Shown here: piece after piece, positions 40,381 to 63,235 of the stretch
How positions within the stretch are numbered: position 1 is the first letter of the stretch
Layout: every line of letters starts with the position of its first letter
Source of the DNA: Synechococcus sp.
GTDB taxonomy: Bacteria > Cyanobacteriota > Cyanobacteriia > PCC-6307 > Cyanobiaceae
DNA: 64,000 nucleotides
Assembly (NCBI GenBank): GCA_047285535.1
Contig: JBJBDC010000001.1
Location: 2,400,136-2,464,135 of the forward strand
Reading direction: 5' to 3'
Translations under genes and position numbers: made by a program
Notes under the pieces: model-generated
What the model was told of the DNA's origin: nothing
Databases searched by the model: none
What the model saw: the letters and a program-made list of their open reading frames with translations, nothing else

Positions 40381-41190
40381 ATGAATCTGCGTCTGCGCCT
40401 TCGGCGCGTTGTTCTTGATGCCGACACTCGGGCAGGCCGCATTTACAACCTGATTATTTTTGGCACGATTCTCGCCAGTGTGGCTGGGCTGTTAGTAGAG
40501 CCCACTCCCACCTGGATTGCTGCCTCGGATCAATCACCGGATTGGACGCATGGTCTTGAGCGAATTTGCTTAGCGGTGTTCATCGCCGATTTTCTGCTGC
40601 ATTTGTGGGTGACCCCAAAGCCGTCCAGTTATCTGTTCAGTTTCTACGGCTTAATCGATTTCTCAGCCGTTCTGTTTTTTTTTATCCCCCAGATCAGCAG
40701 CGGCCTCATCCTTTGGATCTTCAAATTCGGCCGGGTTCTGCGGGTGTTCAAGCTGCTGCGCTTTCTCGATGAAGCCCAGTTGCTCGGGAATGCCTTGAAG
40801 GCGAGTGCACGCCGTATTGGCGTGTTTTTATTTTTTGTGGTGATGGCCCAAGTGGTTTTGGGTTACCTCATGGTGTTGGTGGAAAGCCGCCATCCTGAAA
40901 CCCAGTTTCAGACGGTTGGAGAAGGCGTGTATTGGGCCATCGTCACGATGACCACCGTGGGGTATGGCGACATTGTTCCCCAGACGGTGCTCGGACAATT
41001 GTTGGCTGCCGTTGTGATGCTGCTGGGCTTTGGCATCATTGCCATCCCCACTGGAATTATCACGGTTGAAACGATGCAGCAGGCGCGTCGTGGTGAGCGC
41101 GTGTGCGGGAGGTGTGGGGCGCAGACCCATCGCACCCAAGCTCTGCACTGTGATCAGTGCGGCGCCACGCTTCCGCCCGTCTCGGCTTGA
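40381..41190 (+). CDS. Voltage-gated potassium channel (ion transporter)
   Basis: S4-like RVLRVFKLLRF, filter TMTTVGYGD, C-terminal CxxC..CxxC. Confidence 0.93.
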   Translation: MNLRLRLRRVVLDADTRAGRIYNLIIFGTILASVAGLLVEPTPTWIAASDQSPDWTHGLERICLAVFIADFLLHLWVTPKPSSYLFSFYGLIDFSAVLFFFIPQISSGLILWIFKFGRVLRVFKLLRFLDEAQLLGNALKASARRIGVFLFFVVMAQVVLGYLMVLVESRHPETQFQTVGEGVYWAIVTMTTVGYGDIVPQTVLGQLLAAVVMLLGFGIIAIPTGIITVETMQQARRGERVCGRCGAQTHRTQALHCDQCGATLPPVSA

Positions 41191-41909
41191 GGTTTGAGGA
41201 GGGCAACTTTGGCGGCTGTCTGCTCAGCCTGGCGGCGTGATCCACCCCAGGCTTCTGCTGCTTGGCTGTTTTGGATGAACACCTGGCAATAAAAACGACG
41301 GGGGTCTCCGTGGCGATGGCTGATTTCCTGGCATTCGTAGGTTGGTAGACCGAGTCCCTGGGCCTGTGTCCATTCCTGCAGAGCGGATTTGCTATTTCCG
41401 CGAGTGGGATCAGCGAGTATTTCATGGCTGGTCTGGCGCCAATAGGGCGTTAGCCAAGCCTGCACGGGCTGGACGTTGCCGCTGATTCGATAGATCGCGC
41501 CCATCAGGGCTTCGCAGTGCTCCGCGCGCAGGGTGGCGCGAGCCGCGCGATCACCTTTGGCTTTGGCGCCAAGGTTCAGCAGTGATTCAATCCCAATGGA
41601 TGTGCCCAGGTTGGCCAGCCAGCGGTCACTCACCAGTTGGGCCCGTAGGGAGGAGCGTTCTCCCACGGGGAGTTGGGCATGCTCTGCTTCGATGAAATCC
41701 GATGCTGCCAGCCTCAGCACCGCATCTCCCAGAAATTCCAGTTGTTCGTGATGGCGGGCGAGTCCAGTGGAGGTGTGGGTGAGGGCTTCGTCTAATAGGG
41801 CGAGCTGCTCGTTGCTGAGCTCGCTGTTGTTGCTAAGACTTGGCTCTGGAACCAGTTGGTTCCAGAGAGCTTGGAGCTGCTGCTTGCGCTTGGGAGGGAT
41901 CACAGCAAC
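41132..41909. repeat. 778-bp direct repeat, copy 1 (contains rnc)
   Basis: gcacccaagctctg...gatcacagcaac recurs at 43855-44632 (offset 2723). Confidence 0.97.
41154..41903 (-). CDS. rnc: Ribonuclease III, copy 1
   Basis: ALTHTS, signature EQLEFLGDAVL, EALMGAIY, dsRBD NSKSALQEW..AEQTAA. Confidence 0.93.
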   Translation of the reverse strand: MIPPKRKQQLQALWNQLVPEPSLSNNSELSNEQLALLDEALTHTSTGLARHHEQLEFLGDAVLRLAASDFIEAEHAQLPVGERSSLRAQLVSDRWLANLGTSIGIESLLNLGAKAKGDRAARATLRAEHCEALMGAIYRISGNVQPVQAWLTPYWRQTSHEILADPTRGNSKSALQEWTQAQGLGLPTYECQEISHRHGDPRRFYCQVFIQNSQAAEAWGGSRRQAEQTAAKVALLKPQAETGGSVAPH

Positions 41910-43854: not shown

Positions 43855-44632
43855 GCACCCAAGCTCTGCACTGTGATCAGTGCGGCGCCACGCTTCCGCC
43901 CGTCTCGGCTTGAGGTTTGAGGAGGGCAACTTTGGCGGCTGTCTGCTCAGCCTGGCGGCGTGATCCACCCCAGGCTTCTGCTGCTTGGCTGTTTTGGATG
44001 AACACCTGGCAATAAAAACGACGGGGGTCTCCGTGGCGATGGCTGATTTCCTGGCATTCGTAGGTTGGTAGACCGAGTCCCTGGGCCTGTGTCCATTCCT
44101 GCAGAGCGGATTTGCTATTTCCGCGAGTGGGATCAGCGAGTATTTCATGGCTGGTCTGGCGCCAATAGGGCGTTAGCCAAGCCTGCACGGGCTGGACGTT
44201 GCCGCTGATTCGATAGATCGCGCCCATCAGGGCTTCGCAGTGCTCCGCGCGCAGGGTGGCGCGAGCCGCGCGATCACCTTTGGCTTTGGCGCCAAGGTTC
44301 AGCAGTGATTCAATCCCAATGGATGTGCCCAGGTTGGCCAGCCAGCGGTCACTCACCAGTTGGGCCCGTAGGGAGGAGCGTTCTCCCACGGGGAGTTGGG
44401 CATGCTCTGCTTCGATGAAATCCGATGCTGCCAGCCTCAGCACCGCATCTCCCAGAAATTCCAGTTGTTCGTGATGGCGGGCGAGTCCAGTGGAGGTGTG
44501 GGTGAGGGCTTCGTCTAATAGGGCGAGCTGCTCGTTGCTGAGCTCGCTGTTGTTGCTAAGACTTGGCTCTGGAACCAGTTGGTTCCAGAGAGCTTGGAGC
44601 TGCTGCTTGCGCTTGGGAGGGATCACAGCAAC
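43855..44632. repeat. 778-bp direct repeat, copy 2 (contains rnc)
   Basis: Identical by eye to 41132-41909; the encoded proteins are identical. Confidence 0.97.
43877..44626 (-). CDS. rnc: Ribonuclease III, copy 2
   Basis: Translation identical to copy 1. Confidence 0.93.
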   Translation of the reverse strand: MIPPKRKQQLQALWNQLVPEPSLSNNSELSNEQLALLDEALTHTSTGLARHHEQLEFLGDAVLRLAASDFIEAEHAQLPVGERSSLRAQLVSDRWLANLGTSIGIESLLNLGAKAKGDRAARATLRAEHCEALMGAIYRISGNVQPVQAWLTPYWRQTSHEILADPTRGNSKSALQEWTQAQGLGLPTYECQEISHRHGDPRRFYCQVFIQNSQAAEAWGGSRRQAEQTAAKVALLKPQAETGGSVAPH

Positions 44633-45542: not shown

Positions 45543-45706
45543 TTTTAATGATTGTCCAATGAGTTAGTAGCTAGCGCAGTGTTCTGGTGTGAGAGCCTTC
45601 CTGAAAAATTTAAGGCTTGTTGCGCTGTTGGACGTGTTTTGCCCCTGAGCTTGAACATGATGAGTTAAGGCTTGGCGTTTAAAAAAGATTTAGGGCTGAT
45701 TGGGGT

Positions 45707-46094
45707 GAAAGCAGGACATAAGCCGGGTTCTGTTCTCCCTTGCAAAGAAGGGGGGTGATCATCTATCTGGGATCGCCGTTACCGACGACCTCGAGCGGCG
45801 CACTAAGGCGGAACGGGGCAGATGGCCAACCGTCGTTCCTCGGCCTTGCTCCCAGCCGGGGTTTACCGAGCCAGCACCTCTCGATGCTGCTGGTGCGCTC
45901 TTACCACACCTTTGCACCCTTGCCTGTGCCAGCGAGCCGGCCATCGGCGGTGTGTTTCTGTGGCACTCTCCTCACGGTCACCCGCACTGGGCGTTACCCA
46001 GCAAGCCTGGCCATCGGGGAGCCCGGACTTTCCTCAACGAATAACAGCCGCCCTAGAGCGACAGTCATCAATTGCGATCACCTCGCCTGCTTTC
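45707..46094 (-). ncRNA. rnpB: RNase P RNA (type A)
   Basis: Minus strand has GAGGAAAGTCCGGGC, CGGTGTGGTAAGAGCGCACC-like region, GGTAAACCCC and AACAGAACCCGGCTTA; P1 helix gaaagcagg/cctgctttc. Confidence 0.97.
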
Positions 46095-46107: not shown

Positions 46108-46116
46108 ACTGTTAGT

Positions 46117-46190
<74 letters not shown>

Positions 46191-46210
46191 TTAAGTCACT
46201 CCAAGGGATC

Positions 46211-47277: not shown

Positions 47278-47784
47278 ATGGAGCCATCGAAAGATATACT
47301 TGCAAGAGCCCAGCAAAGGTCTAACGACAGGAAAATTGTTAGCAACTCACAAAATAATTATCAGAATCATTTAGTGACTCATAATTCAATTCAATCTGAT
47401 CGGCAACTTGCGATAGCCTGGGCTAAATCTACTGGGCTAGTACATATTCCTAATAAGCCGCATGAGTTCAGCCCTATGTTGTGCTTAGTTTTAGCATTCT
47501 TTTTAGTATTTATAGGCGGAGTTATCTATTGGTTGTGGTGTAAAAATCAAAAAGATTCCTACAATGAATCCATAAGTGAAGCTGTCGCAGCATGGAGAGC
47601 GAATGGATCACCAAATCCATATCAGCATATGACCGGTACATCACAGATTCCCGTCACCCAAGAGTTAAATACAACTAGCCAAAGCCTTACGGACAAGTTA
47701 AACGAACTGGCACAGCTTCGAAAATCAGGAGTTCTAACTGAAGAAGAGTTTCAGTCCGCAAAGAAAAAAGAACTCAATTTATGA
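47278..47784 (+). CDS. Membrane protein with C-terminal SHOCT domain
   Basis: TM segment LCLVLAFFLVFIGGVIYWLW; C-terminal KLNELAQLRKSGVLTEEEFQSAKKKEL. Confidence 0.85.
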   Translation: MEPSKDILARAQQRSNDRKIVSNSQNNYQNHLVTHNSIQSDRQLAIAWAKSTGLVHIPNKPHEFSPMLCLVLAFFLVFIGGVIYWLWCKNQKDSYNESISEAVAAWRANGSPNPYQHMTGTSQIPVTQELNTTSQSLTDKLNELAQLRKSGVLTEEEFQSAKKKELNL

Positions 47785-48021: not shown

Positions 48022-48220
48022 GGGGAATGCTTTAAGCAGTTGCCTCTGATCAATGCACCTTGAAACCCAAATGACGTTAGCTCTTCTGCAGGAGCTACTG
48101 ATGGCACTGAGGGCTAATGACGTTGATGGCTATAAAGCATTGTTAGCACTTGGGGTTGAAGAACTTGGAAGGGATGTAGCTGGTGAGGTTGAGTCGGAAT
48201 GGATGGTGCCACTTTTAGTG
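48022..48220 (+). repeat. Scaffold element A, copy 1 (3'-truncated small gene MHLETQ..., ORF 48053-48274)
   Basis: Homologous to 53731-53929 (offset 5709); 48044-48132 is identical, the rest diverged. Confidence 0.9.
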
Positions 48221-48534
48221 CTGAGGCAGAACAGAAGTTTCTCTTCAGAACTAAACAACCCTTCCAGCCCATGAGCTGGTCAACCGAACTAATTTTAACG
48301 GTGTTTGCACCAGGGGAAAGCTTGGGACCATTCACTTGTTGCATAACAATGTTTCTATGTAACAACGAACAACAACCTTCAACAACAACAACCTCACCCC
48401 ACTCCTGAATCAAAGGCTCGATCTCTGGGATCAACAGGATGCCGCTCAAAGGGATGGCGTATTTCACAAGGCTCTCTTGCTTGGTGCAGGCATAGGATCA
48501 AGGAAGTATCACGACGGAAGGGATCCGCCAAATA

Positions 48535-48690: not shown

Positions 48691-50043
48691 ATGAGCGATT
48701 CAGAGCAAAACAATGAAGATAGAGTCAAGGTATTTCCTGTTCAACTAACAAGCTGGATTGAAGGCCAGCCTGACCTGGCATACCTTGTAGAAGCAGCGAA
48801 CAGCACTCCTGCCCTTTACAAGACAGGCAGCGAAAATCTAAAAGTCGCCCCACAAAGAGAAGATATCGTCAATAAAAAATACAGCAGCACTACCGCAAAG
48901 GTCAGGGAATTTGTCTGGCCTTCTGCCAGAAGCATGCGTGGAGATTGCTTCGGGACAAAAACATTTGACGAAACATGTGCAAGGGCAGCCAACACAATGG
49001 CTGGGAGCACACTATGGGATGCTGTAAGCACAGTTCCATTTGTACAATTTGCCTTAATTAACTACCTAAAATTTGCCTCTCTGCCAGTTGCTTTTATCAT
49101 CTCTATAGGACTAATGGTTCTATCAAATGTAGCTGGAAGAACAGGGGCCAATAGAGCCAAAGGAAGAGGCGCAATAGCTAACTATGGACTGGCCTTTTTC
49201 ATCCTACTTTCGCTTGTAAAAACGCTCCTATCCGGGGTTGGCTTCGATATCCTCGTCAACAAGGACGGAATCACAAAAGAATATGCACAGCAAGTACTTA
49301 GCGAGCAAATAGAGAAAAAGCAGTCAACCGTCGAAGAACTTCAAGCTCTAAAAAACCCGAAACTGATTAATCTGCAATCCGCATGTCAGCCACTACGCGA
49401 TAAACTAGGCAATATCAACAAAGATTTGCAACCTGAGGAACACAACACAACATGGGTCATGGCATTTGGCACATGGAAGCAGAAACAGACAATGGTGGGA
49501 CTAGGAAACGATGCACTTATTAAAAAGTTCGGAGGAGTAAGTGGAATTCCAGGAGTCTGCAACCAGGCAAGCGCACAGCTAGCTCTAGATCTCAAAGATG
49601 CAGAACAAATGCGAGAGGAGATCAGTTTGGCTCAAAACAAACTTGGCAACGAAACAGCATTAGACATTCTTCAGAGCGATTTTCCTAAAGTTTTCAGCAA
49701 TGAATTCAAGATCACCGAAGATGGGGTTGTCGAAATAAGGTCAGGTCAAGAAGTTGTAGGACAAGCATTTACACAGTTCTTTAACAAGATACAAGATCCA
49801 GAAAGGATATTTGAACTTGGAATATCACTCTTTTGGATGGGTGTCAGCATCATCCTTAGCGTGATGGCAACAATACTCTTGTGGGCTCTTTCTAATACAA
49901 AAGAAATGAAAATGTCTTACAACACAAAGCTGCTGAGGTACAGAATGGACCTTCTACAGTCCTATCAAGACAACCTGCCATTGGCACTGAAGCTAAGGCG
50001 AGAACGTAGAGCTCAAGAACAACAAAATGGAGGACAATCATGA
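48691..50043 (+). CDS. Uncharacterised multi-pass membrane protein with coiled-coil loop (gene 1 of Zorya-like operon)
   Basis: Two or three N-proximal TMs, about 190-aa helical region with two Cys, C-terminal TM; ATGA overlap with the next gene. Confidence 0.85.
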   Translation: MSDSEQNNEDRVKVFPVQLTSWIEGQPDLAYLVEAANSTPALYKTGSENLKVAPQREDIVNKKYSSTTAKVREFVWPSARSMRGDCFGTKTFDETCARAANTMAGSTLWDAVSTVPFVQFALINYLKFASLPVAFIISIGLMVLSNVAGRTGANRAKGRGAIANYGLAFFILLSLVKTLLSGVGFDILVNKDGITKEYAQQVLSEQIEKKQSTVEELQALKNPKLINLQSACQPLRDKLGNINKDLQPEEHNTTWVMAFGTWKQKQTMVGLGNDALIKKFGGVSGIPGVCNQASAQLALDLKDAEQMREEISLAQNKLGNETALDILQSDFPKVFSNEFKITEDGVVEIRSGQEVVGQAFTQFFNKIQDPERIFELGISLFWMGVSIILSVMATILLWALSNTKEMKMSYNTKLLRYRMDLLQSYQDNLPLALKLRRERRAQEQQNGGQS

Positions 50044-50540
50044 CTGGTTCAACCGCATGGATCCCACTAAGTAAAAGGTCGACTGACATTCAAAATAAAG
50101 TCCAAAAAATTTACGAGCTTTATGCAGATCAAAAGGTATTCCAAGAAGCACTCGATGCTTACGAATCTGAAGATTGGGGACTCATCCCGGATGGTCTTTT
50201 TTATAAAGGGTTAATAGAATGTCAACGCCAAAAGCGGCTTATATCTGCCAGTGAAATCAAAAGGCTGCAAACATCTCTAGCCAACGAGAGAACAGGTGCC
50301 GAGGAAACTTATGAAGACGAGGGGATAGAAGTCTTCACAGCACCCTCTGATGAATTAGGCCAACCGCTCAAGTGGTTTAGGGCCAATCCACCTAATAGCA
50401 ACATCAAGAATCAGGCAGAGGATGAATTCAGAATCAGATTGTTAGACCTGTACATCGCTCACGTCAGCAAGACGGGAGAGACTTACTTTCCCCCCCTAGA
50501 GGAAAAGTTACGCACAAGAGCAGACTTCTTTGAGGAGTGA
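50040..50540 (+). CDS. Uncharacterised acidic soluble protein (gene 2 of Zorya-like operon)
   Basis: 166 aa; ATGA overlap upstream and 3-bp gap downstream. Confidence 0.8.
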   Translation: MTGSTAWIPLSKRSTDIQNKVQKIYELYADQKVFQEALDAYESEDWGLIPDGLFYKGLIECQRQKRLISASEIKRLQTSLANERTGAEETYEDEGIEVFTAPSDELGQPLKWFRANPPNSNIKNQAEDEFRIRLLDLYIAHVSKTGETYFPPLEEKLRTRADFFEE

Positions 50541-50543
50541 TAT

Positions 50544-52043
50544 ATGGAATGGATACTTGACAACATCTCAACAGCCGGCCTCTCAATCCTATCCATTCAG
50601 TCATTCATTTTCATCATAACCATATGGCTGAGCATATATCAAGAGAAAAAGCTATCCCCACTAAAGAAGAAACTAAAAAACTGCAGAGAACAGATTGCAG
50701 ATAATATCAACTTAATAGACACAGAGAGTTCAAAGAATCGGGCGTTAGAACTCGCAATCGAATGCAAAGAAAGATATCAACATGCAGCCTCTGCAATTGA
50801 GAACATAAGCGCTGAGACCATTGCAGCTAACACAATTGATGAATACCAGATCATTAGAAAAGGGCCAAAGAAATGGACATTGGGAGAGGTAAATGAACTC
50901 ATTACTGGAGCACCAACATTTCTAATTACACTTGGACTAATAGGTACTTTTTATGGACTCATTCAAAATATGGCGAAGCTCTCTCTACTCTTGACTACGC
51001 AGGAGAACCTAGGCCAGACAGAGGGGTTGATTAACAACTTTGCAAATATCTTTCCCGCCATGGGAGCAGCATTCTCAACCAGTCTTGCTGGTGTATTTTA
51101 CAGTTCAATGATTTGGATTCTAAGCATCCTGTTCGGCACAATTAACAGCAGGGAAAAGCTGGAACAATCAATGTGTGATTACTTAGAACATATTGTTCAA
51201 GTGAACTGTAGAACCTCGTCATTAAGTGCAGCACTCGACAGAATGGAAGATATACTTACAGATTATTTAAGCAACTTCACCAATATCGTAGGGGGTACTA
51301 TTGAAAAATCAGTAGACAGAGCAATAGGCAATTTAGTAAATACACTAAAGAATCACGTTGATAATACGGCAGCTTTTACTAGAGAGATTGAAATAAGCTG
51401 CGGTCAACTAAAAGGTGCTGGAGAAGTCTTTTCTATTGCCGCAGAGCAACTCCACGAAAGCTCTTTTGCAGACGAATTCTCTAATGCCTGCTCAAAATTT
51501 ATAGATCATACTAATTTACTAGAGCAAGCATCGCAGAATATTAAAGTCAGTTCTTTAAATCTAAGCAGGAGCATCAATGATCTCAATGGCGTCATTGAGA
51601 GTACAGGAGAACTTCAGTCAGCACAGCTTAGTGAATTAGCTCAGTCAAGCAAGACGATGGCTTTAACATCATCATCATTGGTAGATTCGAACGACCAATC
51701 GATACGAGAACTGAACAATGCGGTACTTTCGATACAAAGTATTCAAAAGAGAGGGATGACATGGCTGAGCATGAGAGCCAAAACAGACGAAAAAATAACA
51801 GCTTTAAACGACGACCTTAGAAAAATAGTTGTGCAGTTTAGCGCTGTAAATGAGAGAATAATTTCATCATCTCAATCGACTTTTGACACTTACAAGCAAG
51901 AGGTAAATCGCATTACAGAATACGCCAGAGAATTGACGAAGCTCAGCAATGATAGGAGAAAGGATTATGAAGCCATAAGAGAAGGCCTCAATCAAATCAA
52001 ATCAATTGACGAAAAAGTGAGCAGACTCTCAAGCGATAAATGA
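50544..52043 (+). CDS. ZorA-like MotA/TolQ/ExbB-family channel protein with long helical tail
   Basis: TM1 at the N-terminus; APTFLITLGLIGTFYGL and MGAAFSTSLAG; about 290-aa heptad-rich cytoplasmic tail. Confidence 0.85.
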   Translation: MEWILDNISTAGLSILSIQSFIFIITIWLSIYQEKKLSPLKKKLKNCREQIADNINLIDTESSKNRALELAIECKERYQHAASAIENISAETIAANTIDEYQIIRKGPKKWTLGEVNELITGAPTFLITLGLIGTFYGLIQNMAKLSLLLTTQENLGQTEGLINNFANIFPAMGAAFSTSLAGVFYSSMIWILSILFGTINSREKLEQSMCDYLEHIVQVNCRTSSLSAALDRMEDILTDYLSNFTNIVGGTIEKSVDRAIGNLVNTLKNHVDNTAAFTREIEISCGQLKGAGEVFSIAAEQLHESSFADEFSNACSKFIDHTNLLEQASQNIKVSSLNLSRSINDLNGVIESTGELQSAQLSELAQSSKTMALTSSSLVDSNDQSIRELNNAVLSIQSIQKRGMTWLSMRAKTDEKITALNDDLRKIVVQFSAVNERIISSSQSTFDTYKQEVNRITEYARELTKLSNDRRKDYEAIREGLNQIKSIDEKVSRLSSDK

Positions 52044-52666
52044 GAAAGAAAAAATACTCATCATTAACCAATGAGCACAATACATGGATGTCACTGACAG
52101 ACATGCTGTCAAGCACTCTGATGATTACATTCTTATTTATTGCAGTAACAACATTGATCAGGGCGATGAACGCAAAACCACCCGTTATCAATTTACCTGA
52201 TACCGAAGAGTATAGATTTAACACTGGCAGCTTTAATGTGAGTCAAAGCTTCTCAAGGGCATTGAATGAGAATGCGATCCCTGAAATAGAAAGCACTATC
52301 TTCTGCTACGGGATTGATACAATTGAAATCGTCGGACATACGGATGGAAGACCAAATACAGGACGTGGAAACATAGATCAAACCATAGAAGCGGCATTTC
52401 GCACTTCAGATACGAAGAAAGTCATCATAGGGAGTAATCTCGATCTAGGTTTTATGCGAGCAATGGCAGTCAAAACCGAGATTGAGAAGACCCTTCTAAA
52501 GCAGGGGATTCGGCAAGTAAACTTTAGAATTCTATCTGCAGGAAGTACAATTAACGAAGATGGTGAATTCATGCCTGCAACAAACAAAGACCAACGCTCA
52601 CGAAGAAGAATTGAGATCCGATTTCTGAGAAGATCAAAAACACCATTCATACCTCAATGCAATTAG
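52040..52666 (+). CDS. ZorB/MotB-like protein with OmpA-like peptidoglycan-binding domain
   Basis: WMSLTDML TM segment with the conserved Asp; IEIVGHTD, NLDLGFMRAMAV, RRRIEIRF; ATGA overlap. Confidence 0.88.
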   Translation: MRKKKYSSLTNEHNTWMSLTDMLSSTLMITFLFIAVTTLIRAMNAKPPVINLPDTEEYRFNTGSFNVSQSFSRALNENAIPEIESTIFCYGIDTIEIVGHTDGRPNTGRGNIDQTIEAAFRTSDTKKVIIGSNLDLGFMRAMAVKTEIEKTLLKQGIRQVNFRILSAGSTINEDGEFMPATNKDQRSRRRIEIRFLRRSKTPFIPQCN

Positions 52667-52895: not shown

Positions 52896-53099
52896 CTACA
52901 TCTTGCGGTGGGCCCTGGTTTGATGATAAGTAGAACATGAAATCTTGAAGCAACGCCATAGATGCATAAGATCAGGTTCTTTATTGACCGCTGGTAATTG
53001 CTTAGGTGGTTCAACTGCTGGTGGTGTTACCTGATCAACTGGAGTGACCTTTTCACGCCAGTTGGGTAATGGATTACTAGGTCGGCGTTTTTTAGGCAT
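52896..53099 (-). CDS. Small Pro-rich hypothetical protein, possibly truncated (adjoins scaffold B)
   Basis: MPKKRR...NW...DQVTPP resembles the remnant MEKPRRSRGNWDQVTTPQP* on the minus strand at about 55087-55146. Confidence 0.4.
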   Translation of the reverse strand: MPKKRRPSNPLPNWREKVTPVDQVTPPAVEPPKQLPAVNKEPDLMHLWRCFKISCSTYHQTRAHRKM

Positions 53100-53163: not shown

Positions 53164-53252
53164 CCAGCCAGCGGGTCAGGCTGATTCGATAGGAACGACA
53201 TCCTCTTCTGTCACATTCACTAACTCACCGCCACGAGCGGGGTTTTTTAGTG
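53164..53252. repeat. Scaffold element B, copy 1 (ends in a terminator-like hairpin)
   Basis: ccagccagcgggtcaggctgattcgatagg...tcaccgccacgagcgggg aligns without gaps to 55178-55266 (offset 2014). Confidence 0.88.
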
Positions 53253-53368
53253 CCTTATAAACATTGTGAACAAGATCACAACCACGGTTGAGCTAGGTCA
53301 TCGAATGAGCTGTTGAATCCAGAGAAGGTGAGTTCACAGGAGGCACAGCCTCCACAGCATCTTGAATC

Positions 53369-53656
53369 ATGGGCCTTGAAAATTTTAGAAAGATTGGCAT
53401 TCTCACTCTCCTATCATTGAGTATTGCCTCAAGCTTCTTTAATGGAGTAAGTGCAACTCAAGGATTTGTTAAACACAAATCCTTGGCAACGCAAAAGGAT
53501 TGGGTTTCTTCGGAATTGCAAAGAGTCTCTGGCGCACAAGCAAGTGCAAGAAAATGGCAACCAAAGTGGTGCGGGAAAAAGAAGAAATGGAACGGCAATA
53601 AGAGACGTTGCGTCCAAAGAGAAGGATTCTTAAAGTGGAAATTCGGATGGGAGTAG
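53369..53656 (+). CDS. Small secreted basic hypothetical protein
   Basis: RBS ggagg upstream; signal-like N-terminus; Lys/Trp-rich C-terminus with two Cys; terminator follows. Confidence 0.6.
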   Translation: MGLENFRKIGILTLLSLSIASSFFNGVSATQGFVKHKSLATQKDWVSSELQRVSGAQASARKWQPKWCGKKKKWNGNKRRCVQREGFLKWKFGWE

Positions 53657-53697: not shown

Positions 53698-53722
53698 AAC
53701 CCCGCCACAAGCGGGGTTTTTT
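53698..53722 (+). terminator. Rho-independent terminator
   Basis: aaccccgc-cacaa-gcggggtt followed by a T run. Confidence 0.85.
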
Positions 53723-53730
53723 ATTGCAGC

Positions 53731-53980
53731 GGGGAATGCTTTAAGTAGTTAGCTCTGATCAATGCACCTTGAAACCCAAATGACGTTAGCTCTTCTGCAG
53801 GAGCTACTGATGGCACTGAGGGCTAATGACGTTGATGGCTACAAGTCTTGGCTTGCCCTTGGCATTTAACAGCTTGGAAGGGATGTAGCTGCAGAAGTTG
53901 AATCGGAATGGATGGTGCCTTTATTAGTTGAAGAGGAGAGAGACAGGCTGATGGCTTGGCAGCTGGGAGTCAGCCTCTAA
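53731..53980 (+). pseudogene. Scaffold element A, copy 2 (full-length small gene 53762-53980 with premature stop)
   Basis: MHLETQMTLALLQELLMALRANDVDGYKSWLALGI*QLGRDVAAEVESEWMVPLLVEEERDRLMAWQLGVSL*; TAA at 53867. Confidence 0.85.
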
Positions 53981-54056: not shown

Positions 54057-54458
54057 ATGATGAATAATTCAGCCGCCTTGGTCCTACTCCTGCTTGCGGG
54101 ATGCTCCTTGAAAGCAGCGCTTCCAACTGTTGCAATTCAGCGTTGCTACGACGGCGATACTTGCACGACATCCTCAGGAGAGAAGATTCGACTGGCTTGT
54201 ATCGACACGCCAGAGGTTTCAGGTCACAAGGCTGACCCCGTACCGGCCAAGGCAGCAGGCGATTACCTACGCCGCATGGTCGTAGGCAAACAGCTGGAGA
54301 TACGCCGCATCACGAAAGACAGGTATGGCCGAACGGTGGGTGAACTGTATCTATCTGGCCCCCACATCACCCGGCGGAACGTGCAGCGGGAAATGGTTAG
54401 GAGTGGTCATGCAGTGGTCATACCTAAGTACGCCAAGCAGTGCCCCTGGACGGGATAA
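54057..54458 (+). CDS. Thermonuclease (staphylococcal nuclease-like), exported
   Basis: Signal/lipobox-like LLAGC; DGDT, IRLACIDTPE, DRYGRTVG, MVRSGHA. Confidence 0.9.
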   Translation: MMNNSAALVLLLLAGCSLKAALPTVAIQRCYDGDTCTTSSGEKIRLACIDTPEVSGHKADPVPAKAAGDYLRRMVVGKQLEIRRITKDRYGRTVGELYLSGPHITRRNVQREMVRSGHAVVIPKYAKQCPWTG

Positions 54459-55177: not shown

Positions 55178-55266
55178 CCAGCAAGCGAGTCAGGCTGATT
55201 CGATAGGCTCGAAATCTTCCTCAGTCCCATTCGCTAGTTCACCGCCACGAGCGGGGTGTTTGATTG
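55178..55266. repeat. Scaffold element B, copy 2
   Basis: Homologous to 53164-53252. Confidence 0.88.
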
Positions 55267-55414
55267 TCTGCTGAAAAAAGCTGTTTAATCATGATTGAAC
55301 TTAAGCCTTAGCTGTTATTGATGAATTTTGCGTGTTCGGTCAATGGTCGGTTTTCACTGTCACGAATCAACCAATGATCCAGCAATCATTATTAGACCTT
55401 CAAATTCATTGAAA

Positions 55415-57214: not shown

Positions 57215-60200
57215 ATGAGTAATGTATTCAGCCAAGACGTCGTAGGCATTGAGTTAACAGGTCTTTCTTTGTCGTCTAAGATTATCAATCTAGATGGAAG
57301 TGACGAGAGGGTATGGGCCACAATTAACTTCCAGGAAGACTTGTCAGGTTTTGACAGAGGATACCTTGGCTATTATTCAAATGATTTAGATAAATACATC
57401 TCATTGCCTTTTATTTATGACCATGAGATAGATAAAACATCGGCTCAAGGTTATATGAATATTAATCAATATGCGGCAAGTGGAACTTACGAACTGGATT
57501 CAATTGCCCTCCATGATAAAGCTGGGAACTCGTTTTATGCCAATCATGACGATGATGGTTGGGAAGACTATCTTGCCAGTGCTGGTGTTGTTGACACGTC
57601 CTTCGAAGTTAAAAACACTAATCAGGATGTTGAAGGTATTGAGTTAACAGGTCTTTCTTTGTCGTCTAAGATTATCAATCTAGATGGAAGTGACGAGAGG
57701 GTATGGGCCACAATTAACTTCCAGGAAGACTTGTCAGGTTTTGACAGAGGATACCTTGGCTATTATTCAAATGATTTAGATAAATACATCTCATTGCCTT
57801 TTATTTATGACCATGAGATAGATAAAACATCGGCTCAAGGTTATATGAATATTAATCAATATGCGGCAAGTGGAACTTACGAACTGGATTCAATTGCCCT
57901 CCATGATAAAGCTGGGAACTCGTTTTATGCCAATCATGACGATGATGGTTGGGAAGACTATCTTGCCAGTGCTGGTGTTGTTGACACGTCCTTCGAAGTT
58001 AAAAACACTAATCAGGATGTTGAAGGTATTGAGTTAACAGGTCTTTCTTTGTCGTCTAAGATTATCAATCTAGATGGAAGTGACGAGAGGGTATGGGCCA
58101 CAATTAACTTCCAGGAAGACTTGTCAGGTTTTGACAGAGGATACCTTGGCTATTATTCAAATGATTTAGATAAATACATCTCATTGCCTTTTATTTATGA
58201 CCATGAGATAGATAAAGCATCGGCTCAAGGTTATATGAATATTAATCAATATGCGGCAAGTGGAACTTACGAACTGGATTCAATTGCCCTCCATGATAAA
58301 GCTGGGAACTCGTTTTATGCCAATCATGACGATGATGGTTGGGAAGACTATCTTGCCAGTGCTGGTGTTGTTGACACATCGTTTACTATTTCGCGCAAGG
58401 TAAGTGGAAATCATTCGCCAATCCTCAGCGGTACTCCTGTTGTTCTCGCCAATGGCACAGAAGATGTTGACTACATTCTTAAAGCCTCCGATCTGCTTCA
58501 GGGTTATAGCGATCCCGATGGTGATTCTCTTTCAGTAACTGACTTAACCAGTTCGGTTGGCTCTCTCACCAATAACGGCAATGGCACCTGGACACTGAAC
58601 ACTCCAAAAGACTTCAACGGTAAGATTAGACTTTCCTATTCAGTTGTTGATGGCAAAGGTGGTTCCCTTACTGCACAAAATAGCTATTCGCTGCCTGATC
58701 TAAACAAGTCGCCAAGCTTTCCTGCTTTCATTGAGCTGCGTGATCTTGATGGCAGTAATGGATTCAAAATCAATGGCATTGATGAATTTGATCGTCCATT
58801 TCGAGTCAGTGGCGCGGGAGATATAAATGGTGACGGTATTGATGATCTCATTATCGGTGCAACTGGGGCTTATGCAAATGGTAATGCTAATTCTGGAGAG
58901 ACCTATGTTATCTTTGGAAGCAATAAGGTTTTCAGTAGTAGCTTTAACCTTTCTGATCTGAATGGCAAAAATGGCTTCAAGATAAACGGCATTGGAAGGA
59001 ATGACTTTTCAGGAAGCTGTGTCAGCAGTGCAGGCGATGTCAACGACGATGGTAACGATGATCTGATCATCAGTAGCACGATGCGAAACAAGGTCTGGGT
59101 TGTTTTTGGTAGCAATAAGAGTTTCAGCAGCAGCATTGAACTTTCTGACCTAAATGGCAGAAATGGTTTCACCATCTATGGCTCAGGAGGCATTATTAGT
59201 GACGCAGGTGACGTCAACGGCGATGGTATCGATGATCTGATTCTTGGCGATGCTGGGGCAGATGCCAATTACAGGAGGAATGTTGGTGAGGCCTATGTGA
59301 TTTTTGGCAGCAAGTTGGGTTTCAACAGCAAATTCAATCTGCACTCTGGCGCACTTTCAAACCTGAATGGCGCCAACGGTTTTGAGATAATTGGTATTGA
59401 TCAAGATGACTACGCTGGCGGCTCAGTCAGTGGCGCAGGTGATGTTAATGGTGATGGTATCGATGATCTGATTATCGGTGCATCTGGAGCTGATGCAAAT
59501 GGTAAGCAAGATTCTGGAGAGACGTATGTTGTCTTTGGCAACAAAAAGGGTTTCAGCAGTAGCACTAAACTTTCTGAACTAAATGGCAATAATGGCTTCA
59601 AGATAAACGGTATAGGACAGCATGACAGATCAGGAAACTCAGTCAGTGGCGCAGGTGATGTGAATGGTGATGGTATCGATGATCTGATTATCGGTGCAGT
59701 ATATGCCGATGCAAATGGTAATGTACGGGCTGGGGAGTCCTATGTTGTCTTTGGGAATAATAAGGCTTTCAACAGCACCGTAGAACTTTCTGACCTGAAT
59801 GGAATCACTGGTTTTCAGATAAACGGTATCGACGCAGAGGACAGATTAGGAAGCTCCGTCAGTGGCGCAGGTGATGTTAATGGTGATGGTGTCGATGATC
59901 TGATTATCGGTGCATCTGGAGGCGATCCCAATGGCGACAAAATCGGTCAGGTCGGCGGTGCCGGAGAGACTTATGTGGTTTTTGGCAGCACTAAGGGTTT
60001 CAATAGCATCCTTGAACTTTCTGACCTTAATGGCAGCAAGGGCTTTAAGATTAATGGTATTGATACAGGTGACAGCTCTGGCGGCTCAGTCAGTGGCGCA
60101 GGTGATGTAAATGGCGACGGTATTGATGATCTCATTATCGGTGGAACTGGGGCTAATGAAAGTTATGTGGTCTTTGGCAGAAGCAGTTCCAATGACGACG

Positions 60201-63200
60201 AGCAAGGGAACAACAAACCTATTCTCAGGGGTACTCCTTCTTTCCTTGCTAATGGCGCAGAAGATCTTGCCTATGTGGTCAAAGAAACAGATCTTTTAGA
60301 GGGATATTCCGATCCCGATGGCCACAGTCTTTCGGTTGCTGGTCTAACAAGTTCGATTGGTTCTCTCATTGAAAATGGCAATGACACCTGGACTCTGAAT
60401 ACTCCAAAAGACTTCAACGGCAAGATTGAACTGTCTTATGCAGTCATTGACGGGAATGGTGGTTCTGTTGCTGCACAAAACAGTTTTTTACTGACCGCTG
60501 TTAATGACGTTCCGATTCTTAGCGGACACTATGTTGTTCTTGCCGATGGTACAGAAGATGTTGCCTACACAATCAAAGCCACCGATCTCCTTCAGGGGTA
60601 TAGCGATGTTGATGGTGATGTCTTATCTATTAGCGATTTGACTACATCGGTTGGTTCTCTCGCCGACAATGGTGACAGCACTTGGATGTTGACAACACCA
60701 GATAGTTTCAACGGAAGCATTGATCTGTCTTATTTCGTCATTGATGGCAACGGTGGTTCGATAGCTGCCACAAAAAAAGTCTCATTGACGGCCGTCAATG
60801 ATGCGCCCATTCTCACTCGCCCTCGTGTTGATCTTCGCCCTCCTGTTGATCTTGTCGATGGCACAGGAAATGTTGCCTACACAATCAAAGCCACCGATCT
60901 ACTTCAGGGGTATAGAGATTTTGATGGTGATGTCTTATCTATTATCGATTTGACTACATCGCTTGGTTCTCTCGCCGACAATGGTGACAGCACCTGGACG
61001 CTGACAACACCAGATAATTTCAACGGAAGGATGCTTCTGTATTATTCCGTCATTGATGGCAACGGTGGTTCGATAGCTGCCACAAGAGATGTCTTATTGA
61101 CGGCCGTCAATTATAATTATGCGCCCGTTGAGGACAAAATTATTGGTACGTCTTACAGGGATGTTGAAACAGCAGGCACGACAGATCTGGTGACAGACAG
61201 CCTCGGTGGCGTGTATGCGCGTAGCTTCGGAGGCACGCTTGATGCCATTACTTACAACGGCAGCCAGATGAAAGATGGCTTCTTTGCTGGATGGTCCATC
61301 AAAGGGGCGGAAACCATCGATGGTGTCAACAATGTCACCTGGAAACACAGCTCTGGTTCCATTTCAATCTGGAATACAGATGCCAATTGGAATTACACAG
61401 GTGGTGCGTTTTATGGCTCAGCGAATACCTCAGAAGGACTGCAGTGGGAAGCAGCTTTTGATCAGGACTTCAATGAGGACAAAATTATTGGTACGTCTTA
61501 CAGGGATGTTGAAACAGCAGGCACGACAGATCTGGTGACAGACAGCCTCGGTGGCGTGTATGCGCGTAGCTTCGGAGGCACGCTTGATGCCATTACTTAC
61601 AACGGCAGCCAGATGAAAGATGGCTTCTTTGCTGGATGGTCCATCAAAGGGGCGGAAACCATCGATGGTGTCAACAATGTCACCTGGAAACACAGCTCTG
61701 GTTCCATTTCAATCTGGAATACAGATGCCAATTGGAATTACACAGGTGGTGCGTTTTATGGCTCAGCGAATACCTCAGAAGGACTGCAGTGGGAAGCAGC
61801 TTTTGATCAGGACTTCAATGAGGACAAAATTATTGGTACGTCTTACAGGGATGTTGAAACAGCAGGCACGACAGATCTGGTGACAGACAGCCTCGGTGGC
61901 GTGTATGCGCGTAGCTTCGGAGGCACGCTTGATGCCATTACTTACAACGGCAGCCAGATGAAAGATGGCTTCTTTGCTGGATGGTCCATCAAAGGGGCGG
62001 AAACCATCGATGGTGTCAACAATGTCACCTGGAAACACAGCTCTGGTTCCATTTCAATCTGGAATACAGATGCCAATTGGAATTACACAGGTGGTGCGTT
62101 TTATGGCTCAGCGAATACCTCAGAAGGACTGCAGTGGGAAGCAGCTTTTGATCAGGACTTCAATGAGGACAAAATTATTGGTACGTCTTACAGGGATGTT
62201 GAAACAGCAGGCACGACAGATCTGGTGACAGACAGCCTCGGTGGCGTGTATGCGCGTAGCTCCGGAGGCACGCTTGATGCCATTACTTACAACGGCAGCC
62301 AGATGAAAGATGGCTTCTTTGCTGGATGGTCCATCAAAGGGGCGGAAACCATCGATGGTGTCAACAATGTCACCTGGAAACACAGCTCTGGTTCCATTTC
62401 AATCTGGAATACAGATGCCAATTGGAATTACACAGGTGGTGCGTTTTATGGCTCAGCGAATACCTCAGAAGGACTGCAGTGGGAAGCAGCTTTTGATCAG
62501 GACTTCAATGAGGACAAAATTATTGGTACGTCTTACAGGGATGTTGAAACAGCAGGCACGACAGATCTGGTGACAGACAGCCTCGGTGGCGTGTATGCGC
62601 GTAGCTCCGGAGGCACGCTTGATGCCATTACTTACAACGGCAGCCAGATGAAAGATGGCTTCTTTGCTGGATGGTCCATCAAAGGGGCGGAAACCATCGA
62701 TGGTGTCAACAATGTCACCTGGAAACACAGCTCTGGTTCCATTTCAATCTGGAATACAGATGCCAATTGGAATTACACAGGTGGTGCGTTTTATGGCTCA
62801 GCGAATACCTCAGAAGGACTGCAGTGGGAAGCAGCTTTTGATCAGGACTTCAATGAGGACAAAATTATTGGTACGTCTTACAGGGATGTTGAAACAGCAG
62901 GCACGACAGATCTGGTGACAGACAGCCTCGGTGGCGTGTATGCGCGTAGCTCCGGAGGCACGCTTGATGCCATTACTTACAACGGCAGCCAGATGAAAGA
63001 TGGCTTCTTTGCTGGATGGTCCATCAAAGGGGCGGAAACCATCGATGGTGTCAACAATGTCACCTGGAAACACAGCTCTGGTTCCATTTCAATCTGGAAT
63101 ACAGATGCCAATTGGAATTACACAGGTGGTGCGTTTTATGGCTCAGCGAATACCTCAGAAGGACTGCAGTGGGAAGCAGCTTTTGATCAGGACTTCAATG

Positions 63201-63235
63201 AAGACAAAATGATTGGAGCTGATCCACTTGCGTAG
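57215..63235 (+). CDS. Giant repetitive surface/adhesin-like protein (2006 aa)
   Basis: 3 x 130-aa repeats; cadherin-like Ig domains (NGTED..DLLQGYSDPDGD); about 7 FG-GAP repeats (AGDVNGDGIDDLIIGA..YVVFG); 3 more cadherin-like domains; 6 x 115-aa Trp-rich repeats. Confidence 0.92.
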   Translation: MSNVFSQDVVGIELTGLSLSSKIINLDGSDERVWATINFQEDLSGFDRGYLGYYSNDLDKYISLPFIYDHEIDKTSAQGYMNINQYAASGTYELDSIALHDKAGNSFYANHDDDGWEDYLASAGVVDTSFEVKNTNQDVEGIELTGLSLSSKIINLDGSDERVWATINFQEDLSGFDRGYLGYYSNDLDKYISLPFIYDHEIDKTSAQGYMNINQYAASGTYELDSIALHDKAGNSFYANHDDDGWEDYLASAGVVDTSFEVKNTNQDVEGIELTGLSLSSKIINLDGSDERVWATINFQEDLSGFDRGYLGYYSNDLDKYISLPFIYDHEIDKASAQGYMNINQYAASGTYELDSIALHDKAGNSFYANHDDDGWEDYLASAGVVDTSFTISRKVSGNHSPILSGTPVVLANGTEDVDYILKASDLLQGYSDPDGDSLSVTDLTSSVGSLTNNGNGTWTLNTPKDFNGKIRLSYSVVDGKGGSLTAQNSYSLPDLNKSPSFPAFIELRDLDGSNGFKINGIDEFDRPFRVSGAGDINGDGIDDLIIGATGAYANGNANSGETYVIFGSNKVFSSSFNLSDLNGKNGFKINGIGRNDFSGSCVSSAGDVNDDGNDDLIISSTMRNKVWVVFGSNKSFSSSIELSDLNGRNGFTIYGSGGIISDAGDVNGDGIDDLILGDAGADANYRRNVGEAYVIFGSKLGFNSKFNLHSGALSNLNGANGFEIIGIDQDDYAGGSVSGAGDVNGDGIDDLIIGASGADANGKQDSGETYVVFGNKKGFSSSTKLSELNGNNGFKINGIGQHDRSGNSVSGAGDVNGDGIDDLIIGAVYADANGNVRAGESYVVFGNNKAFNSTVELSDLNGITGFQINGIDAEDRLGSSVSGAGDVNGDGVDDLIIGASGGDPNGDKIGQVGGAGETYVVFGSTKGFNSILELSDLNGSKGFKINGIDTGDSSGGSVSGAGDVNGDGIDDLIIGGTGANESYVVFGRSSSNDDEQGNNKPILRGTPSFLANGAEDLAYVVKETDLLEGYSDPDGHSLSVAGLTSSIGSLIENGNDTWTLNTPKDFNGKIELSYAVIDGNGGSVAAQNSFLLTAVNDVPILSGHYVVLADGTEDVAYTIKATDLLQGYSDVDGDVLSISDLTTSVGSLADNGDSTWMLTTPDSFNGSIDLSYFVIDGNGGSIAATKKVSLTAVNDAPILTRPRVDLRPPVDLVDGTGNVAYTIKATDLLQGYRDFDGDVLSIIDLTTSLGSLADNGDSTWTLTTPDNFNGRMLLYYSVIDGNGGSIAATRDVLLTAVNYNYAPVEDKIIGTSYRDVETAGTTDLVTDSLGGVYARSFGGTLDAITYNGSQMKDGFFAGWSIKGAETIDGVNNVTWKHSSGSISIWNTDANWNYTGGAFYGSANTSEGLQWEAAFDQDFNEDKIIGTSYRDVETAGTTDLVTDSLGGVYARSFGGTLDAITYNGSQMKDGFFAGWSIKGAETIDGVNNVTWKHSSGSISIWNTDANWNYTGGAFYGSANTSEGLQWEAAFDQDFNEDKIIGTSYRDVETAGTTDLVTDSLGGVYARSFGGTLDAITYNGSQMKDGFFAGWSIKGAETIDGVNNVTWKHSSGSISIWNTDANWNYTGGAFYGSANTSEGLQWEAAFDQDFNEDKIIGTSYRDVETAGTTDLVTDSLGGVYARSSGGTLDAITYNGSQMKDGFFAGWSIKGAETIDGVNNVTWKHSSGSISIWNTDANWNYTGGAFYGSANTSEGLQWEAAFDQDFNEDKIIGTSYRDVETAGTTDLVTDSLGGVYARSSGGTLDAITYNGSQMKDGFFAGWSIKGAETIDGVNNVTWKHSSGSISIWNTDANWNYTGGAFYGSANTSEGLQWEAAFDQDFNEDKIIGTSYRDVETAGTTDLVTDSLGGVYARSSGGTLDAITYNGSQMKDGFFAGWSIKGAETIDGVNNVTWKHSSGSISIWNTDANWNYTGGAFYGSANTSEGLQWEAAFDQDFNEDKMIGADPLA
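57248..58377 (+). repeat. Tandem repeat, 390-bp unit x about 2.9
   Basis: Units start at 57248, 57638 and 58028; only internal difference seen is A>G at 58217. Confidence 0.97.
61129..63198 (+). repeat. Tandem repeat, 345-bp unit x 6
   Basis: Units start at 61129, 61474, 61819, 62164, 62509 and 62854; agcttcgga in units 1-3, agctccgga in units 4-6. Confidence 0.97.

Follow-up and report, generated by a model that had tools for sequence, protein, structure and literature searches.

A four-gene operon, designated G1 to G4, lies in a 64,000-nucleotide stretch of Synechococcus sp. DNA (assembly GCA_047285535.1, contig JBJBDC010000001.1, positions 2,400,136 to 2,464,135; hereafter the window), taken from a complete 3.03-Mb picocyanobacterial chromosome. 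G3 and G4 encode a divergent pair of proteins of the ZorA/ZorB type, the motor pair of Zorya anti-phage systems, and G1 and G2 encode a membrane protein and a small acidic soluble protein (Table 1). The best explanation is that the four genes constitute a single horizontally mobile system composed of two modules, G3–G4 and G1–G2. The recurrence of the same four genes in seven other genomes and 17 metagenome contigs indicates more than chance association. That the operon is a Zorya-related defence variant with its output at the membrane is given about an even chance.

A divergent ZorA/ZorB-type pair and its linked genes

According to the open reading frame (ORF) list of the window, G1 to G4 occupy one strand between 48691 and 52666. 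The stop and start codons of G1/G2 and of G3/G4 overlap in ATGA sequences at 50040 and 52040, respectively, and three bases (50541–50543) separate G2 from G3. The four co-oriented, tightly coupled genes described in a first-pass annotation, made from the sequence alone, are therefore present exactly as it gave them. Downstream of G4, the next ORFs of at least 60 amino acids (aa) are a 67-aa ORF on the opposite strand (52896–53099) and a 95-aa ORF at 53369, and the first terminator-like hairpin 3´ of G4 is located at 53228–53253. No ORF of at least 100 aa is listed between the end of G4 and 54057, and none large enough for a helicase or HNH gene follows G4 in the window or in homologous loci, in agreement with the earlier statement that no such gene lies downstream of zorB.

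The motifs LGLIGTFYGL and AFSTSLAG are present in the translation of G3. Hydropathy analysis places its hydrophobic segments at about 7–33, 119–140 and 179–200, followed by a tail of about 300 residues, so that the MotA/ExbB-type subunit with a helical tail proposed at first reading is recovered. The tail matches helical-bundle proteins when the G3 profile is compared with solved structures (chemoreceptor 2ch7, E value 1.6e-4), and the homologue alignment reveals a nearly invariant 14-residue motif at 402–415. Among the PADLOC models, G3 matches ZorA1 (PDLC00597; E 1e-16, 58.8 bits, residues 18–432), together with several weaker matches to ZorA1 and ZorA3 models. As a single sequence G3 matched no solved structure. 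A profile built from 30 G3 homologues has as its best solved relative a 696-aa ZorA-type chain (8vvn_C, E 1.5e-6, over the channel helices), with E values of about 0.2 for flagellar MotA chains and 0.8 for E. coli ZorA (8qyh).

The translation of G4 contains the motif WMSLTDML. Its Asp21, in the N-terminal transmembrane helix, is invariant in all eight homologues, as are the OmpA-type motifs GHTD, GSN.DLG..RA and RRIE.RF and two cysteines, C89 and C207. G4 matches the PADLOC models ZorB2 (E 3.8e-10) and, over residues 49–200, ZorB1 (PDLC00610), with further ZorB1 models matching; solved relatives of the G4 profile include 8vvi_A (E 3.9e-5), 8vvn_B and E. coli ZorB (8qyd_F, 0.17). The transmembrane aspartate and OmpA-like domain claimed for this protein are supported by the invariant residues and motifs, but the Pfam OmpA threshold is not reached, close relatives of G4 scoring 22–24 bits against a cut-off of 27.2. 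The PHROG search returned no match for G1, G2 or G3 and only a 19-bit match for G4.

G3 and G4 share the MotA/ExbB channel motifs and the MotB-type plug and transmembrane aspartate with flagellar MotAB, ExbBD and TolQR. They differ from these motors in the long tail that follows the last membrane helix of G3, in the lack of a match of G3 to Pfam MotA_ExbB, in its distance from flagellar MotA, and in the OmpA-like domain of G4, which is not of the ExbD/TolR fold; moreover, no flagellar, TonB or TolA genes are found among the ORFs near the operon. Both the PADLOC matches to ZorA1 and ZorB2 and the best solved relatives, which are ZorA/ZorB-type chains, favour the ZorAB-like identity put forward in the first-pass annotation over MotAB or ExbBD.

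Three types of Zorya have been described, namely type I (ZorABCD), type II (ZorABE) and type III (ZorABFG) (PMC11946911, PMC8565338). The operon resembles them in pairing a MotA-family subunit, in which three membrane segments precede a long helical tail in the cytoplasm (the layout given in PMC11946911), with a MotB-like partner that has a transmembrane aspartate and an OmpA-like peptidoglycan-binding domain, and in its tightly coupled genes and patchy, island-borne distribution. The features expected of a ZorA-type and a ZorB-type subunit are thus found in G3 and G4, whereas the type-defining partner genes (ZorC with ZorD, ZorE, or ZorF with ZorG) are lacking, as is any nuclease or helicase. 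In their place stand a membrane protein with four predicted passes and a small adaptor. Furthermore, the G3 tail spans about 300 aa, against roughly 500 aa in the 729-aa E. coli ZorA (tail 223–729, PMC11946911), and G3 scores below the curated ZorA cut-off. Judged by sequence, G3 and G4 are ZorAB-like in every feature tested, yet outliers of the family, G3 falling outside the curated NCBIfam ZorA_2 subfamily.

The linkage of this pair to G1–G2 is consistent across genomes. In a sample of 401 genomes of the picocyanobacterial family, the G3 profile matches 28, and the eight strong matches (E < 1e-130) correspond exactly to the eight genomes with G1–G2 beside G3–G4. Six of these are colinear, and in two G3–G4 are inverted and converge on G2. 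Against all GTDB species, the profile returned five loci, all from Synechococcus (WH7803, CS-1325, UW140, BO 8801 and 8F6). A metagenome scan gave 20 loci, of which 19 have a strong G3 and one, L134, a weak match only. G2, with or without G1, is adjacent in 17 of the 19 contigs (nine colinear, eight convergent), and the other two, L121 and L125, end before the place. In these three collections the G3 subfamily was seen in picocyanobacteria only, and no relative was detected by the G3 profile in viral contigs. Adjacency persists through rearrangement and through divergence to about 38% G1 identity. The co-conservation that the first-pass annotation had proposed to check is therefore observed, and this G3/G4 subfamily is obligately linked to G1–G2. 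PADLOC detected no ZorC, ZorD, ZorE, ZorF or ZorG, and nothing of ZorC/D/E size follows G4 in the seven other genomes and 17 metagenome loci, so a simple deletion of a downstream zorE or zorCD in this genome is not indicated.

It is highly improbable that the locus is a chance meeting of two independent neighbours, a G1–G2 system and an orphan ZorAB pair sharing one island. Such independence would fit the six picocyanobacterial loci in which G1–G2 occurs without G3–G4, the related form of G1–G2 in 18 other cyanobacterial genomes and the existence of other ZorAB-like pairs without G1–G2. However, it does not account for an adjacency found in eight of eight genomes and in every informative contig, for the overlapping stop/start codons or 3-base gap, or for the conservation of the adjacency despite the inversion of G3–G4.

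In a quick IQ-TREE analysis of 44 G1 proteins, from which rows shorter than 300 aa and the duplicate L006/L007 copies were left out, the ZorAB-linked G1s fall into one group (eight rows, SH-aLRT 99). Its sister group has seven rows, comprising the six G1–G2-only loci and L088. Since the ZorAB-linked G1s form one clade, the link to ZorAB was gained or lost about once, and the many loci represent few independent events. At L088, three opposite-strand ORFs after G1 (167, 485 and 207 aa) were considered as counterparts of G2–G4 and discarded; the 207-aa product is a RES toxin beside an Xre antitoxin, and the other two match nothing.

The G1–G2 module

G1 matches the PADLOC model PDLC01074, named C3a124 (E 3.2e-33, 113 bits), with residues 21–425 aligned to profile positions 4–359 of 371, and a cyanobacterial G1 homologue matches the same model at E 9e-69. 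C3a124 is cluster 124 of the type III CRISPR accessory genes of Shah et al. 2018, listed with four members, the representative PCC7418_1341, subtype B and the function 'unknown' (PMC6546367). The first two genes had been called unknown at first reading. This applies to G2, which has no match in Pfam, PADLOC, NCBIfam or PHROG, but not to G1, which belongs to a catalogued family. Neither gene matches ZorC, ZorD, ZorE, ZorF or ZorG in PADLOC, where C3a124 is the only hit of G1.

Although G1 fits the family model over nearly its full length, the family was defined from four genes beside type III-B cassettes, and in the operon G1 is coupled instead to G2 and a ZorAB-like pair, with no such cas genes adjoining. 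Some distant G1 homologues are located near RAMP or Cas1 genes. A role as a type III CRISPR accessory protein was rejected for the operon described here; the complete genome of the window contains no RAMP (PF03787) match, while control genomes gave matches.

An exhaustive HMMER search with the G1 profile recovered 270 representatives at E ≤ 0.001 among 1.84 billion, a modest family. In the ESM Atlas, the family is found in Cyanobacteriota in unnamed clusters only, and DUF4407 is the nearest named family (score 0.77, a lead only). With G1 alone as query, the initial genome-contig scan gave no match.

The G1 protein has an N-terminal domain (about 1–95), hydrophobic segments at about 100–124 (weak), 125–151, 161–190 and 372–403 as judged by hydropathy, and a basic C-terminal helix (404–446). 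A helical domain of about 180 aa lies between the last two hydrophobic segments and contains two nearly invariant cysteines, C232 and C290. The AlphaFold2 model, based on a 69-row alignment, is all-helical, with a predicted local distance difference test (pLDDT) score of 82.9 and a predicted template modelling score (pTM) of 0.62. A wide fold search (VIA) with this model gave as its best result talin, with Z 8.5 and a root-mean-square deviation of 4.4 over 124 residues, which is the noise level for helical models, and neither the G1 nor the G2 profile matched a solved structure below E 0.1. The orientation of membrane proteins is indicated by their charged loops, according to the positive-inside rule. 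From these loops and the hydropathy, and because both ends of G1 face G2, which is cytoplasmic, in the predicted complex, we infer that G1 has cytoplasmic ends, four membrane passes and a periplasmic domain (about 190–372) that holds C232 and C290. When G1 proteins with and without linkage to ZorAB were compared for conservation, no ZorAB-specific surface stood out.

G2 consists of two conserved domains with a disordered acidic linker (79–104) between them, and the alignment shows an invariant T145–G146 motif in the C-terminal domain (about 105–164). Its AlphaFold2 model (pLDDT 69) contains two helical domains.

Computationally, G1 and G2 form a pair, on the combined evidence of adjacency, fusions and a predicted complex. 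The loci were mapped with our own ORF caller and BLASTP clustering; among the 23 of them (22 fetched picocyanobacterial loci and the window), G2 directly follows G1 in 14. The C-terminal domain of G2 is fused behind the G1 domain in 5 of the 147 newly returned representatives of the HMMER search, namely P0137 (domain E 1.2e-22), P0242, P0238, P0206 and P0184. The predicted G1–G2 complex reaches an ipSAE of 0.70, compared with 0.00 for the best of three controls, with at least 94% of contacts agreeing between runs and a partner pLDDT of at least 74. The 0.70 mark was attained by 58 of 80 solved complexes and by 2 of 110 mismatched pairs, a calibration that applies only roughly because the prediction was made from our own alignments. 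The predicted interface joins residues 103–164 of G2 to residues 12–93 and 404–437 of G1. The earlier description of G1 and G2 as accessory or effector genes of ZorAB is right in that they are linked to this ZorAB, but they also make up a module of their own that exists without it.

A relative of G1 is encoded in 19 of 401 genomes sampled from the phylum, this genome among them. No G3 or G4 was detected by phmmer within ±9 kb of it in the 18 others, where it is usually followed by a helical protein of 230–300 aa (clusters c3 and c11) and then by a pentapeptide-repeat protein. The c3/c11 partner and the G2 C-terminal domain have in common a TG motif of about 31 residues (hhalign probability 85.9, E 5.2e-6). 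This triad, for which no published name was found, is present in other cyanobacterial families (L035–L053; for example, L037 8246–10343), where it is frequently carried by small replicons and has CHAT-TPR, RAMP/Cas1 and helicase genes in its vicinity. It resembles the operon in the order of a G1-family membrane protein and a TG-motif partner, and differs from it in the greater length of that partner and in the third gene, which encodes the pentapeptide-repeat protein instead of ZorAB.

One of the 30 long forms scanned, P0277 (908 aa), joins a CHAT protease domain (184–330) to a G1-type membrane domain (399–747) in a single natural protein. It parallels the CHAT-CHASE2 proteins that are found near other G1 homologues (L094).

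The first-pass annotation had also suggested looking for defence genes nearby in other cyanobacteria, and such genes recur as neighbours of the G1 family. The genes next to G1 relatives include CHAT-TPR, AAA_33/WCX, RAMP, Cas1, SF1 and SNF2 (DrmD-like) helicases, NYN and RES-Xre, and further NACHT/TPR STAND, TIR, SLATT, PDC-S55, IetA-like AAA, Hhe/PDC-S37, an LmuA-like protease, DarTG and Csx1.

Proposed working and competing readings

In the literature searched, which left most subscription journals outside, no Zorya-like system or further Zorya type matching this one was found. Likewise, no paper naming the WH7803 genes SynWH7803_2115 to SynWH7803_2118 was found. A Synechococcus paper that mentions Zorya (PMC10696648) refers, in its passage on the subject, to a type II Zorya recognized by Pfam HNH, a different system. 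The literature agrees to this extent with the proposal of an undescribed system, and none of the observations that the first-pass annotation had named as fatal to it was made.

As a Zorya-related defence variant, the operon could work as follows. G3 and G4 would form a peptidoglycan-anchored, ion-driven motor of the ZorA/ZorB type, probably a 5:2 complex by analogy with solved ZorAB, with the helical tail of about 300 residues extending into the cytoplasm. G1 would reside in the inner membrane and expose a helical domain to the periplasm, and G2 would be a small acidic cytosolic adaptor whose C-terminal domain would clamp the cytoplasmic N-terminal domain and C-terminal helix of G1, leaving the N-terminal domain of G2 free. 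The motor may detect envelope damage at phage entry, as in Zorya (PMC11946911, PMC11890865). The signal would then travel down the G3 tail to G1–G2, which would be the receiver instead of ZorC/ZorD, ZorE or ZorF/ZorG, and the candidate contact is that of the G3 motif 402–415 with the free domain of G2. Finally, G1 might open or depolarise the membrane in a response of the abortive-infection type.

As neither G1 nor G2 has a nuclease or enzyme signature, the membrane is the most likely site of the output. We infer an anti-phage function, a signal flow from the tail to G2 and G1, and a role of G1 as effector rather than sensor. Within the defence reading, the assignment of G1 as membrane effector is tentative, and the reverse assignment, with G1 as periplasmic sensor, is equally open. 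A wider proposal is rather doubtful. It envisages a nuclease-free relative of Zorya with an ion-driven rotary motor, in which motion of the G3 tail would act through the free N-terminal domain of G2 on G1, which would breach or depolarise the inner membrane; cyanobacteria in general would use G1 together with a TG-motif adaptor as an output module, served by ZorAB, pentapeptide-repeat or CHAT proteins (the last in one fusion) as sensors.

The described types of Zorya all end in DNA-targeting or soluble partners. If the defence reading is correct, the ZorAB-type motor would be a sensor that can be transferred to an output of quite another kind, and the operon would offer a second and simpler case for studying signal transmission through the tail. 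It would also add a defence candidate for marine picocyanobacteria, whose islands abound in unknown genes. The module of G1 and TG-motif adaptor (270 representative clusters) is a cyanobacterial gene family known to date by a catalogue number alone. Synechococcus WH7803 is genetically tractable and its cyanophages are well studied; as the operon is present there, the proposal can be tested in that strain.

Several results weigh against a Zorya-related defence system. Neither G3 nor G4 has any Pfam match at E ≤ 0.1, including MotA_ExbB for G3 and OmpA for G4, and G3 obtains 21.3 bits against the NCBIfam model antiphage_ZorA_2, the cut-off of which is 100. Sequence and fold searches detected no catalytic or pore-forming signature in G1 or G2. 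Foldseek found no PDB structure at E ≤ 0.001 for the G1 model, and the best Z of the G2 fold search, 4.5, is at noise level. The restriction of the ZorAB-linked form to one clade, with its few independent linkage events, reduces the weight of the many loci. In addition, a function inferred from gene neighbours is weakly supported in cyanobacterial islands, since such regions also carry many genes unrelated to defence.

An envelope machine without a defence role would likewise be consistent with the four proteins, none of which shows an enzyme or effector signature. The motor would then power an envelope task such as maintenance, transport or surface remodelling by way of the periplasmic domain of G1, with G2 in assembly or regulation. 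This explanation is unlikely. The large predicted periplasmic helical domain of G1, with its conserved cysteine pair, speaks for it, as does a second group of ZorAB-like proteins in picocyanobacteria, whose conserved gene cluster also encodes tubulin-like and FtsA-like proteins. Against it stand the rarity of the operon, found in only 8 of the 401 genomes of the family sample and, within the genus, in 2 of 24 others, its position in stretches of low GC content at three different tRNA or transfer-messenger RNA (tmRNA) sites, and the recurrence of defence genes next to members of the G1 family.

The second ZorA/ZorB-like pair (543–567 aa and about 200 aa) was found in 11 of 401 picocyanobacterial genomes (L102–L109; for example, L104 238–11843). 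Its conserved cluster contains proteins of about 439, 178, 505 (weak Tubulin_2), 1095 (weak FtsA-like), 362 and 240 aa, none of which has a match in PADLOC.

Island setting and neighbouring elements

Downstream of tRNA-Arg(CCT), the GC content drops from about 0.54 to 0.39–0.45 over 46.5–53.5 kb. Among the homologous operons, that of L006 lies 2.3 kb from tRNA-Arg(TCT), and those of WH7803 (L007) and L126 adjoin tmRNA. The tRNA island proposed at first reading is thus supported in this genome, and tRNA/tmRNA hot spots are used in others too. The occurrence of the operon at differing tRNA/tmRNA sites between genomes fits the cargo of a mobile island.

Table 1. Coordinates of the operon genes and of neighbouring features (window positions unless a locus is named).
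Feature	Coordinates	Strand	Description	Basis
G1	48691..50043	+	450-aa membrane protein, C3a124 family	ORF
G2	50040..50540	+	166-aa acidic soluble protein	ORF
G3	50544..52043	+	499-aa divergent ZorA-like subunit	ORF, PADLOC, profile search
G4	52040..52666	+	208-aa ZorB/MotB-like subunit	ORF, PADLOC, profile search
RNase P RNA, bacterial class A	45704..46093	-	immediately before the island-marking tRNA-Arg	Rfam, 248 bits
tRNA-Arg(CCT)	46116..46191	+	likely landmark of the operon-carrying island	ARAGORN, Rfam
Direct repeat, left copy	48022..48219	.	198 nt, 88% identical; overlaps 73-aa ORF 48053-48274	
Direct repeat, right copy	53731..53928	.	198 nt, 88% identical; upstream of SNase-like gene 54057-54458	
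SNase-like gene, L006	5575-6228			
SNase-like gene, L007	5593-6213			
SNase-like gene, L102	6545-7246			

A function for the mobile element itself, such as exclusion of incoming DNA, transfer, or maintenance of a plasmid or integrative element, is improbable. The position of the operon at island integration sites is compatible with it, as is the presence of several G1 homologues on small replicons or contigs; in L008, a G1 homologue directly follows a gene for a TrwB/VirD4-type coupling protein, near NikA-like, RadC and ParA-like genes. However, conjugation genes lie beside G1 in only 1 of the 23 mapped loci. Among the window ORFs, Pfam and PHROG scans revealed no integrase, relaxase or transfer gene adjoining the operon, and the viral contigs contain no relative of the G3 profile.

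The operon is bracketed by the two copies of the 198-nucleotide (nt) direct repeat, which may represent either the duplication of a small gene or the boundary of a cassette. A further repeated element of 26–92 nt, which ends in a GC-rich hairpin and a T run (CCGCCACGAGCGGGGTTTTTT), occurs at 53164–53255, 53702–53727 and 55178–55269. Its three copies lie between island genes and resemble a shared terminator module.

Genes for staphylococcal nuclease (SNase)-like proteins constitute a multi-copy island family, represented in the window at 54057–54458. A longer paralogue (PADLOC C3a212, 'SNc+LTD') adjoins ZorAB-like operons in three genomes. The SNase-like gene was considered as the missing nuclease of the system and rejected, since it adjoins the operon in only three of the eight operon-bearing genomes, on the opposite strand in two of those, and belongs to a family with six matches in this genome and at least one in 31 of the 41 genomes from the genus.

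The 168-aa product of 47278–47784, a gene located between the tRNA and the operon, spans the membrane once and has a SHOCT domain at its C terminus; a SHOCT protein is also found near G1 homologues in L053. A 2006-aa ORF without a PADLOC match extends over 57215–63235 and starts with two 300-nt repeats (57233–57532 and 57623–57922), which are 390 nt apart and 98% identical. Finally, two paralogous 249-aa ORFs, both on the minus strand (41154–41903 and 43877–44626), flank a low-GC stretch at 42–43.5 kb that contains a 457-aa ORF, and the second of these paralogues has, as judged by eye, RNase III-like motifs.

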